64,000 nt of DNA from the NCBI RefSeq assembly GCF_048403405.1, contig NZ_CP183129.1; one strand, written 5' to 3'. Below, in pieces: positions 37,201 to 40,200 of this stretch; the stretch's first letter is position 1, and each line of letters begins with the position of its first letter. A program made the position numbers. Origin of the DNA: Escherichia coli. GTDB taxonomy: Bacteria > Pseudomonadota > Gammaproteobacteria > Enterobacterales > Enterobacteriaceae.

Positions 37201-40200
37201 CGTGGGCGTCCTGCCTGTTCGTTATCTTTGATATAAAATCTAACTTAACTTAGTTTTAATGGCAAGAGAAAACACCAAACTTTTCTTAGTTCGGTGTTTT
37301 GGTTAGAGAAAAGGGGGGGCTAGAGTTCGTATTGAACTCCTTTGACTACACCAATGATGAGGCAATTACCATTGATCGGGATGTTGGGGTACCGGGGATT
37401 TAATGGCACTAAAAACTTTTGAGGGCCATCGATAACTAATTTTTTTACTGTGGCTTCGTTTGTTCCATCAAGTCTAGCGATGACTATTTTTCCATGCCGG
37501 GGTTCTGCATCAGGATCTACAATCACTGTTGCGCCTTCTGGTATTGTTGGGAGGCCGTTAGGGTTAGTCATGGAGTCGCCTTTAACCTCCAATGCAAATG
37601 AGTTATCACCAATCTTTAATGATGTATCTACCCACTTGTCTACTTCACTAAACACTTCTGCTGTCCTGCACTCAGTAAACTGCCCAGCCTGAACCCACGA
37701 GATTACAGGAACTCTGCGCATGTTTGTGACGAGTTTGCCTTCAAACTCCGCACCATAAAGAATGTAATCTATTGACGTATTGAAGAACTTCGCTAATTTT
37801 GAAAGTGCTTCCCCACCAGGGACATTGATGTCTTTCTCCCAGTACCCCACAGCAACGTCACTTACTCCACAAAATTTACCCAATTCTTTCTGGGACGTTC
37901 TGGTAACTCTTCTCAGAGCTTTTATACGCTGACCAACCGTTTCCATAGGAGCACCATTTCTTTAATTACTAAGTAATCTTAGTTTTTATTGACCTAAGAT
38001 AGATTGATAATTAACATCTAATAAAACTTAGTTTGGAGGGCATATGACGACTGACGATATCGAAAGCTACTTCGGCAGCATTGAGAAAGTTGCTGCTTTT
38101 TTCGGCATAACAACTGAAGCCGTTTATCAGTGGCGAAACCGTCCTGGCCAGTTAATTCCAAAAGGACGTGCAGCAGAGGCTGCATATAGAACTTGCGGAC
38201 GGTTGCCATTTAAACCTGAGCTTTATGAAAAATCTAATGGATAAATCGATTTACAGAAACCACAGATATGAGGGCTTAAACGTGGGTAAAGAACCTGAAT
38301 GGAAAGTTGATAAGCAACCAGCATGGCTGGTGGCAGCAATACGAAGAACGATTGCTGATTTACCTCATGGCTATGAGGAAGCAGCAGAAATTCTTGGTTT
38401 GTATAAATCTGATGATATCACCCCAGCAAAAGATCAATTGCATAACAGACTGCGTAGCGGTGGGGATCAAATTTTTCCACTTGAGTGGGCCATGGTTTTA
38501 CAGGATGCCAGTGGTACCAGGCATGTAACGGATGCAATAGCCCGTCGTAGTAATGGGGTGTTTGTGCCGCTGGTGGTCATTGATGACATTGACAATGGTG
38601 ACATTAATCAGCGGCTGATGGAGTCAATAGAATGGATTGGCAAGCATTCCCAGTACTTACGCAAGGCAACTGCTGATGGAGTTATTGACCAGGCTGAGCG
38701 TGAGCAAATCGAAGAGAACAGCTACCAAGTAATGGCGAAGTGGCAGGAGCATTTAACACTGTTATTTCGTGTTTTTTGTGCGCCGGAAAAGAGTAACGCC
38801 CGCGAGTGTGCAGCTCCGGGCGTCGTGGCGTCGATTGCTTCTGGTTGTGGAGAAACTAACGCATGAACAGTTTAACAACACACTACCGTCGCTCGCAACT
38901 GATTGCGCTTCCTGTACCGGGTGGAAAAGCGAAGGTGGAGTATTGCTATGCAGTGAATGTACCAGGTGACAGGGAAATTGTAACCCACAGCTTTGCAGAG
39001 TGGGCTGTGGGTGATTTCAACCGGCAGAAGGAGACAGTCCTTTGCGACAAGTTAACCGCTGGTTCAAAGATCACCACGGAGTGCCCGTCAGAGTCATTCG
39101 TTGGGAGCCGGAAACACAACGGGTTATCTACCTCCGTGAAGGCTATGAACATGAATGCTTCAGCCCACTTGAGCATTTCAGGCAAAAGTTCAGGGAGATA
39201 AGGGACGATCATGAGCAAACCAGTAATGATTGATTCTGATAATTCTGGGCGTTATATTGTTCTGGCAGCGGCAAAATCCGTTGCCGGGATTGGCGTCCTG
39301 AAATTGATTACTGAGCATAACCGCGCTCATGCGGTTTTTTCGTGTCATGAGCATTGCTACGCCCAAATTATGGTGGGGCGTACAGGGCCGACTTCGGTCG
39401 GGCCGGGTTCGGTAGTCTCCGGTAACGCCAACCCTGTACGTCTCACCACCTCTGTGATTGGCGTCCCATGTGGTGAGTTTTCTAAAAAACTGACTACCGG
39501 GGCTGTCACTATGACTACTCTCCCAACCCTCTCTCAACCTGAAATTGCCATCGTTGATGGTCAGGCTGTTACATCTTCTTTGGCTGTTGCTGACTTCTTC
39601 TCTAAACGTCATGACGATGTTCTGAAAAAGATTCGCATTTTGGATTGTTCTCCAGAGTTTTGTGCCCGCAATTTTGCGGAGACATCAATTTTGGTACGCC
39701 AGCCCAACGGCGGTACTCGCAAACTACCTTGCTATCAAATAACCCGCGATGGCTTTGCGTTTCTTGCTATGGGTTTCACGGGTAAACGTGCTGCCCAGTT
39801 CAAAGAGGCATACATCAATGCCTTTAACCAGATGGAACAGGCGCTGATCGGAAAGGTTGATACTTCATGTGTCGCGCACAATGCCCACGTTGTTTACCTC
39901 TACATGGCTGAAATTCACCGCGTTTGGTTAGAACAACTTTATCCGATGCTGGTTTCAGTTCAGTCTCCGCTGGCTTCATCGCTCTACGACTACATCAACG
40001 ATGGTGTATTCGTTGCCGGGCTGGTGGACTCGGAACTGAACGAAAAGCATAAGGAGGTGCGTAAGTGAGCACCAAATTAACCGGCTATGTATGGGATGGT
40101 TGCGCAGCGTCAGGCATGAAATTATCCAGTGTGGCAATTATGGCCCGTCTGGCTGATTTCAGTAATGACGAGGGTGTGTGCTGGCCATCAATTGAAACCA

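Follow-up and report, generated by a model that had tools for sequence, protein, structure and literature searches.

We examined a 64,000-nucleotide stretch of Escherichia coli DNA (assembly GCF_048403405.1, contig NZ_CP183129.1; hereafter the window) that carries a divergent pair of phage regulatory genes. The leftward gene, cI (37320-37946, minus strand), encodes a CI/LexA-type repressor of 208 amino acids (aa) with Pfam HTH_3 (helix-turn-helix) and Peptidase_S24 domains, and the divergent cro gene (38044-38244, plus strand) encodes a 66-aa protein that matches Pfam P22_Cro (PF14549) with 42.8 bits against a cut-off of 30.2; a CII-like (Phage_CP76/YmfL) gene comes after cro. The nearest characterised repressors are P22 C2 and phage 21 CI, which are 47-49% identical to CI (P22 C2 47%). 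Its N-terminal domain (residues 3-65) matches the P22 C2 structures 1ADR, 2R1J and 3JXB (E ~7e-10), and its C-terminal domain matches lambda CI (E 3.6e-28). As in P22 and phage 21, therefore, an HTH domain homologous to that of C2 is joined to a C-terminal S24 self-cleavage domain in CI, and the divergent cro belongs to the P22_Cro family. Phage mEp460_4F5 is 99% identical to 37162-38300 and has a 100% identical CI, and the 951-bp immunity core is present in 512 of 5426 complete E. coli genomes (~9%) at a coverage of at least 80%. We consider it highly probable that a lambdoid prophage of the mEp460_4F5 immunity type has its lysis-lysogeny switch here, built on the plan of P22 immC.

The spacer between the start codons of cI (ATG at 37946, minus strand) and cro (ATG at 38044) occupies exactly 37947-38043 and has a G+C content of 28%. 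A preliminary description of this DNA had pointed to four CTAAG/CTTAG half-sites within these 97 bp as the core of an operator for CI and Cro, and all four are present, at 37969, 37978, 37994 and 38027. CTAAG and CTTAG are scarce in the whole window (21 observed, where dinucleotide shuffles predict 67.6), nine of these copies fall within 36233-38031, and the spacer is unique in the window in holding four of them per 97 nucleotides (nt). Moreover, when the spacer was shuffled 20,000 times with its dinucleotides preserved, only 3 shuffles reached four such pentamers (P=1.5e-4). The rarity of the pentamer, the uniqueness of the cluster and the outcome of the shuffles together argue that the cluster is real rather than a product of chance. 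The same description had listed two perfect palindromes. The first, ATTACTAAGTAAT (37965-37977), is indeed a 6-1-6 palindrome; CTAAG-TAAT-CTTAG (37969-37982) is instead an inverted repeat with 5-bp arms, its TAAT centre not being palindromic. As a site in its own right the ATTACTAAGTAAT palindrome was rejected because most relatives lack it: in E. coli the commonest variant has ATTGCTAAGTAAT at this position and Citrobacter has GGCTAAGCAAT, with the CTAAG-N4-CTTAG dyad retained in both.

The sequence around this dyad occurs three times near cI, at 37234, 37963 and 38012 (repeat family D1), and CTAAG-N4-CTTAG with one mismatch allowed is found at 37240, 37969 and 38018. The operator form is 18 bp long and consists of two 7-bp half-sites, 5'-A-n-C-(T/A)-A-A-G, on either side of 4 bp (full pattern ANCNAAGNNNNCTTNGNT; all operator sequences are given on the plus strand), so that CTAAG corresponds to half-site positions 3-7. 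The spacer holds three such sites of predicted right-operator (OR) function. OR3 (TACTAAGTAATCTTAGTT, 37967-37984) adjoins cI and is the best dyad, with one mismatch to ANCNAAGNNNNCTTNGNT; OR2 (ACCTAAGATAGATTGATA, 37992-38009) is weak, having one good half, one degenerate half and three mismatches; and OR1 (ATCTAATAAAACTTAGTT, 38016-38033), with one mismatch, adjoins cro and lies over the start region of the rightward promoter, PR. The centres of OR3 and OR2 are 25 bp apart and those of OR2 and OR1 24 bp. On the other side of cI, in a putative left operator (OL), OL1 (ATCTAACTTAACTTAGTT, 37238-37255) has one mismatch, lies in the spacer and -10 of the leftward promoter, PL, and shares 15 of its 18 bases with OR1, while the probable OL2 (ACCAAACTTTTCTTAGTT, 37274-37291), also with one mismatch, is 36 bp from OL1 and overlaps the cI terminator. 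No OL3 was found, and by eye no IHF-like site fits OR2.

Searching the 64 kb for ANCNAAGNNNNCTTNGNT with at most one mismatch returned five matches against 1.81 expected, four of which (OR3, OR1, OL1 and OL2) flank cI; OR2 was not recovered because of its three mismatches. The fifth match (AACAAAGGGGCATTTGCT, 42201-42218) has a G/C-rich centre and lies far from the switch promoters and outside the immunity block, and we took it to be a chance occurrence.

A scan of 36900-38300 for sigma-70-like promoters returned PR as the only promoter on the plus strand and PL as the only one on the minus strand, and each overlaps an operator site. PR (37989-38017, plus strand) is composed of TTGACC (37989-37994), N17 and TAACAT (38012-38017), and its -10 stays TAnnAT at the same position in relatives (TAGCAT, TAATAT or TAGTAT). 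An alternative -10, GATAAT at 38006-38011, was rejected because it varies (GGTTAT in Citrobacter, GATGTT in Klebsiella), whereas the TAnnAT at 38012-38017 is conserved. PL (37237-37265, minus strand) is composed of TTGCCA (37265-37260), N17 and TAGATT (37242-37237), so that OL1 falls within a promoter placed directly downstream of the repressor gene, as expected of a P22-type switch. For the promoter of cI in the lysogen, PRM, the presumed -10 hexamer is TAAGAT (37976-37981, minus strand), which lies inside OR3 and is matched by position to the P22 PRM annotated in NC_002371; OR3 keeps AACTAAGAT in all lineages. PRM has no recognisable -35, which fits the expectation for an activator-dependent promoter. 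Between the two genes there are thus three 18-bp dyads about 24 bp apart that overlap PR and, judged by position, presumably PRM.

We compared this layout with that of P22, whose operators and promoters were taken from the annotation of NC_002371 and whose immunity region is near-identical to that of phage 21. P22 operators are likewise 18 bp long with a 7-4-7 form, A-n-T-n-A-A-G, N4, C-T-T-n-A-n-T, in which T stands where the sites described here have C. On the right side, OR1 and OR2 are separated by 6 nt and OR2 and OR3 by 7 nt, compared with 5 and 7 nt in P22, giving centre distances of 25 and 24 bp here and 25 and 23 bp there. On the left side, OL2 and OL1 are separated by 18 nt here and 17 nt in P22, in both cases with the PL -35 in between, and the spacing of the two sites is 36 bp as against 35 bp. 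The promoters are also laid over the sites in the same way: the PR -35 consists of TTG plus the initial three bases of OR2, the PR -10 bridges OR1 and the spacer between OR2 and OR1, the PL -35 is 4 nt from OL1, the initial bases of the PL -10 are the end of OL1, and TAAGAT, annotated as the PRM -10 in P22, lies within OR3. In both phages OL comes directly after the repressor gene. Unlike in P22, no OL3 was found beside OL1 and OL2, OL2 is embedded in the cI terminator, and cI has a leader of ~20 nt after OR3, where P22 c2 begins directly after OR3.

To place these sites in an evolutionary context, we used as a set of close relatives 80 IMG/VR loci with a CI at least 98% identical to that of the window. 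In these loci the five sites vary only at positions 2 and 4, within the central 4 bp, or where a base is off-consensus to begin with, and the flanks and spacers are freer to vary than the sites. OR3 is present in 80 of the 80 loci and in Citrobacter, Salmonella and Klebsiella relatives, with changes confined to the central 4 bp and, in the half next to cI, to positions 1, 2 and 7. Every lineage has A-n-C-n-A-A-G in the good half of OR2; its CTAAG at 37994 is CAAAG in the commonest E. coli variant, a change at position 4, which is degenerate in P22 too. OR1 is conserved in all lineages, and OL1 is constant except at position 2 in the 80 loci and is conserved in Citrobacter, Salmonella, Klebsiella and the more distant locus L155. 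With a CI that is 84-91% identical and has the same HTH, prophages of Citrobacter, Salmonella, K. michiganensis and K. aerogenes keep all five sites and their spacing, and the non-coding DNA around the sites has diverged. The motif search in related immunity regions that had been proposed in the preliminary description thus finds the half-site dyads kept across relatives.

Across six lineages, 60 half-sites yielded a consensus in which A occupies position 1 in 49, position 2 is free (A in 22, T in 14, G in 13 and C in 11), position 4 is T or A in 56, A occupies position 5 in all 60 and position 6 in 59, and position 7 is G in 34 and otherwise C or T. Conservation of positions 1, 5, 6 and 7 (A..AAG), freedom at position 2 and an A/T-rich, uncontacted centre are all shared with P22 and phage 21, from which the sites differ in the limitation of position 4 to T or A and, above all, at position 3. 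The P22/21 half-site requires T there, whereas 57 of the 60 half-sites have C, a count that becomes 54 of 54 when the degenerate half of OR2 is excluded. P22 repressor contacts operator positions 2-7 and 12-17, not 8-11, and a P22 operator with T-to-C changes at positions 3 and 16 is bound only non-specifically (dissociation constant at least 136 nM, at least 16-fold weaker; PMC4267663). Because C at position 3 is the very change that abolishes specific binding by P22 repressor, we predict that phages of this type are heteroimmune to P22 and 21.

The recognition helices of both proteins have changed as well. CI has SDVAVGYWE where P22 has SNVAISQWE, with N32D, S36G and Q37Y (P22 numbering) as the three altered residues of the recognition helix, and Cro has TTEAVYQW where P22 has SDAAVSQW, including an S-to-Y change. 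The immunity specificity relative to P22 and 21 would therefore rest mainly on position 3, matched by the changed CI and Cro helices. More distant loci are consistent with this assignment. The CI of one of them (L118, IMGVR_UViG_3300011475_000012) is 41% identical overall to that of the window, which makes it as distant as P22 C2, and has the helix GVSDVTIGYWE (GVSDVAVGYWE here); its Cro has an EA(F/V)YQWR helix, as here. Its OR reads TCCTAAG-AATA-TTTAGAT, 6 nt, ATCTAAT-CTTT-TTTAGGT, CAATAAA, AACTAAG-ATTA-CTTAGGT, that is, the same three dyads with the same 6- and 7-nt spacers. L155, with 79% identity over the N-terminal domain, has sites like those of L118, and both halves of OR2 are well formed in the two loci. 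Conversely, another member of the P22-type repressor family, with the helix VSASAVTQWE (L139, IMGVR_UViG_2660237931_000005), has AnGTAAG dyads, with G at position 3. Position 3 therefore forms a series, with T in P22 and 21 (AnTnAAG), C here and in L118 (AnCTAAG) and G in L139. Since L118 and L155 share the motif of the window and P22/21 and L139 differ from it, the operator motif follows the recognition helices and not overall relatedness.

Taken together, these observations indicate that the CTAAG/CTTAG repeats are very probably binding sites for CI and Cro, predicted here from sequence, in a P22-like arrangement with one recognised base changed; the operator core proposed in the preliminary description is thereby refined to three P22-type sites of 18 bp. 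A different explanation would make the repeats chance occurrences in AT-rich promoter DNA, or sites for another protein such as the CII-like activator or a host factor. The base composition of the spacer lends itself to this, and the sites partly overlap promoter hexamers. Nevertheless, we judge it very improbable, given the outcome of the local shuffles, the recurrence of the same dyad at OL, the agreement of conserved and free positions with the contacted and uncontacted positions of P22, and the way in which the motif tracks the CI and Cro helices across relatives of 41-91% identity and changes when the helix does. Several points do weigh against binding of CI and Cro at these sites. With up to two mismatches allowed, the window shows no enrichment of the pattern (17 matches against 26.9 expected), so that the case for operators rests on clustering, geometry and conservation and not on raw count, and the pattern statistics are partly circular because the pattern was derived from the same sites. 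OR2 departs from the pattern at three positions in the window, and its conservation may partly come from the promoter, because its good half overlaps the PR -35. Finally, the location of PRM is set solely by analogy with P22.

We next consider where the left operator lies. The preliminary description had proposed as a candidate OL a second CTAAG/CTTAG pair, spaced by N26 at about 36240-36275. Such a pair exists, but its half-sites are at 36233-36237 and 36259-36263 and are separated by N21. An OR in the cI-cro spacer combined with an OL formed by this pair could draw on two exact half-sites in inverted orientation, on the rarity of the pentamer in the window, and on the presence of the segment in 72 of the 80 same-CI loci. 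Geometry, distance, loss and presence in heteroimmune phages all speak against it: every other site has N4 between its half-sites, the pair is 579 to 1040 nt from cI depending on the locus, and its CTTAG is replaced by CTTGG or CTTTG in 5 of the 72 loci. Furthermore, 36217-36330 is 98-100% identical in the heteroimmune PhiR29_1, PhiR49_1 and SfIV, in which the DNA-binding domain of CI is unrelated and the operators are of the TGTACC type, and no promoter overlaps the pair. We therefore rejected 36233-36263 as OL; the pair belongs to the shared backbone, and we regard this version of the left operator as extremely improbable.

The comparison with these phages also delimits the immunity module. 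PhiR29_1 and SfIV, whose CI is 224 aa long with an unrelated N-terminal domain, share 35937-36364, 37115-37223 and the sequence from ~38461 or 38736 onward with the window, and do not share 37224-38460. The segment 37224-38460 is thus the immunity module; all five sites are inside it and the 36233-36263 pair falls outside. Within this block, just downstream of cI, the sequence identifies 37238-37291 as the predicted true OL.

OL1 and OL2 differ in their setting, as OL2 overlaps the intrinsic terminator of cI (37269-37300, minus strand; inverted repeat I20), which has a 13-bp stem followed by a U-run, an RNA fold of -15.6 kcal/mol (z = -4.6) and two compensatory pairs across lineages. OL might accordingly consist of OL1 alone, with OL2 a terminator hairpin that resembles a site by chance. 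Consistent with this, the right half of OL2 also serves as the 3' arm of the hairpin, which shows compensatory changes, and the Salmonella sequence of that half (GGTTGAT) tracks the hairpin and not the half-site consensus; both points count against OL2 as an operator. On the other hand, the terminator loop contains a perfect 7-mer, AACTAAG. Its CTAAG is the same in five genera, and the 4 nt that follow it differ (AAAA, AATA, TTTA or TTAA); a terminator loop by itself gives no reason for an invariant CTAAG beside 4 nt that vary freely. In addition, the spacing of OL2 and OL1 is 35-36 bp with the PL -35 between them, as in P22. From this pattern we think that OL2 is probably a genuine operator and that a left operator made of OL1 alone is rather doubtful.

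These positions suggest how the switch would work. Dimers of CI and of Cro would recognise the 18-bp dyads by contacting the 7 outer bases on either side and leaving the central 4 uncontacted. In the lysogen, CI dimers on OL1 (and OL2) and on OR1 and OR2 would occlude PL and PR, the former blocking leftward early transcription. With OR2 in the PR spacer and touching the -35, OR1 over the PR start region and OR3 coinciding with the presumed PRM -10, CI at OR1 and OR2 would shut PR and stimulate PRM, as inferred from P22 and lambda; CI at OR2 presumably aids PRM, which lacks a recognisable -35. Cro, or an excess of CI, would turn cI off by occupying OR3, which overlaps the PRM -10. Upon DNA damage, self-cleavage of the S24 domain would allow both early promoters to fire. 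The analysis itself shows the sites with their spacing and conservation, the way they covary with the helix, and where the promoters lie; in addition to binding by CI and Cro, we infer the order of occupancy, cooperativity and the activation of PRM from this arrangement.

The arrangement also recalls lambda, with divergent cI and cro, three operators ~24 bp apart, an OL that represses PL, and the homologous C-terminal domain of CI. Lambda differs in its 17-bp operators of other sequence and in the fold family of the CI N-terminal domain, and it carries rexAB between cI and OL. In lambda it is OR1 that falls in the PR spacer, with OR2 over the -35; relative to this, the operators described here and those of P22 are displaced by one position. 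Phage 434, with 14-bp operators of the form ACAA-N6-TTGT, is similar in its short conserved outer bases, in an uncontacted centre that is read indirectly and in an HTH_3-type repressor fold, but has another half-site, a 6-bp centre and other recognition residues.

Beyond the immunity block, the PL transcript begins with a structured RNA of ~69 nt (37157-37225, minus strand; covariance model 96.9 bits) that belongs to the shared backbone and starts ~12 nt past the PL -10. It forms three helices with 96% of cells paired and compensatory change in 11 of 16 pairs, a degree of pairing matched by none of 500 shuffles and well above that of slid controls (20-41% paired). Rfam has no family for it. 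At least 120 IMG/VR contigs carry its invariant 22-mer. The core, AGGCAGGACGCCCACGAAGUAGCC, which does not vary, is present in at least as many contigs and in 49 phage records; phages with the core include SfII, SfIV, SfV, ST64B, SPN3UB, mEp237, ZF40 and YeP1. At least 56 different promoter/operator types precede the RNA, and many repressor families occur with it. Downstream of the RNA, many loci have a bidirectional terminator hairpin as well as a boxA-like CGCTCTTTAA(A/C)AA. In the window, 37117-37149 holds a bidirectional terminator-like hairpin (AAGCGTCCGGTAGGGCGCTT, then a T-run) that ends the plus-strand moron described below and, after it on the minus strand, the boxA-like CGCTCTTTAAAAA (37129-37117), where most relatives have CGCTCTTTAACAA.

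The leader would set the left arm apart from that of P22, which has a boxA/boxB nut site in place of a structured RNA: no homologue of N (P22 gene 24) was seen, no N-like open reading frame (ORF) was recognised in the PL operon, and no boxB-type hairpin comes after CGCTCTTTAAAAA. SfIV-type phages of the same backbone have been reported to lack N, CII and CIII (PMC3851460). A covariance-model search of the window found a single copy of the RNA and none downstream of PR, and there is therefore no putR- or nutR-like partner. By analogy with the put sites of HK022, the RNA may be a cis-acting antiterminator, or it may regulate the leader in another way.

Other features of the same prophage lie on either side of the switch. 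The moron (36373-37107, plus strand) lies antisense to PL in the variable slot that separates the PL leader from the early-left genes, and replaces a 122-aa HTH gene of mEp460_4F5; its position recalls P22 sieB and lambda rex. It contains a 164-aa ORF (36469-36963) assigned to phrog_6315, flanked by three tiny ORFs with proline-rich tails (...QKPPVPPKPPKEN, ...VPPKPKPPKPKK and ...PPRPRPPDPGPK). The moron proteins gave no PADLOC match, and the 164-aa ORF no Pfam match. Just upstream of the moron are two to three copies of the direct repeat CC(A/C)CAACAAC(g)A(t)AAGGATT(T), at 36314-36371 and 36225-36241, one of which includes the CTAAG at 36233. Farther left, a long inverted repeat (35949-36037; 25-nt arms, 84% complementary, 39-nt loop) is located upstream of an RdgC-like gene, whose Pfam match starts at residue 56 of the ORF at 34997-36064. 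To the right of the switch, 39252-39453 (plus strand) matches the Rfam models for isrK (68.6 bits) and C4 antisense RNA (82.3 bits) and, slightly below the cut-off of 46.7, c4-a1b1 (44.3 bits). These RNAs fall in the 5' part of a mechanically called ORF at 39211-40068, the product of which has Ash and Rha (Phage_pRha) matches. Together they form a P1-type c4/isrK/C4 RNA module ahead of an Ash/Rha gene (39252-40068), a P1/P7 immI-like second module for immunity or antirepressor control.

Our literature search found no published description of these operators. AACTAAG together with an operator and repressor appeared only in a BAA2326 repressor paper, as an adapter oligonucleotide, and the mEp460 papers among the matches listed are genome surveys or comparative studies. 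What the window contains is a new immunity specificity in a well-known family, on the P22 plan; as an ordinary new immunity type it leaves the understanding of such switches unchanged. It nonetheless defines the operator sequence, and the predicted immunity specificity, for a repressor carried by ~9% of complete E. coli genomes, with the same repressor type in Citrobacter, Salmonella, Klebsiella and related genera, which can be used for annotation, for predicting superinfection immunity and for designing orthogonal repressor/operator pairs. It is also a natural counterpart to the P22 experiment in which T at position 3 was changed to C: here C has been fixed by evolution together with a changed recognition helix. 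A broader reading, which we put forward tentatively and hold to be unlikely, is that the loci form a natural series of P22-family specificities and that their left arm is wired unlike that of P22. In such a series the base at position 3 (T, C or G) would change along with two or three recognition-helix residues in both CI and Cro. In the left arm, the probable OL2 lies inside the cI terminator and every PL transcript starts with the covarying RNA, which could act as a put-like antiterminator in cis or regulate the leader in another way. If this is true, the P22 repressor family would constitute a ready-made code for re-targeting.

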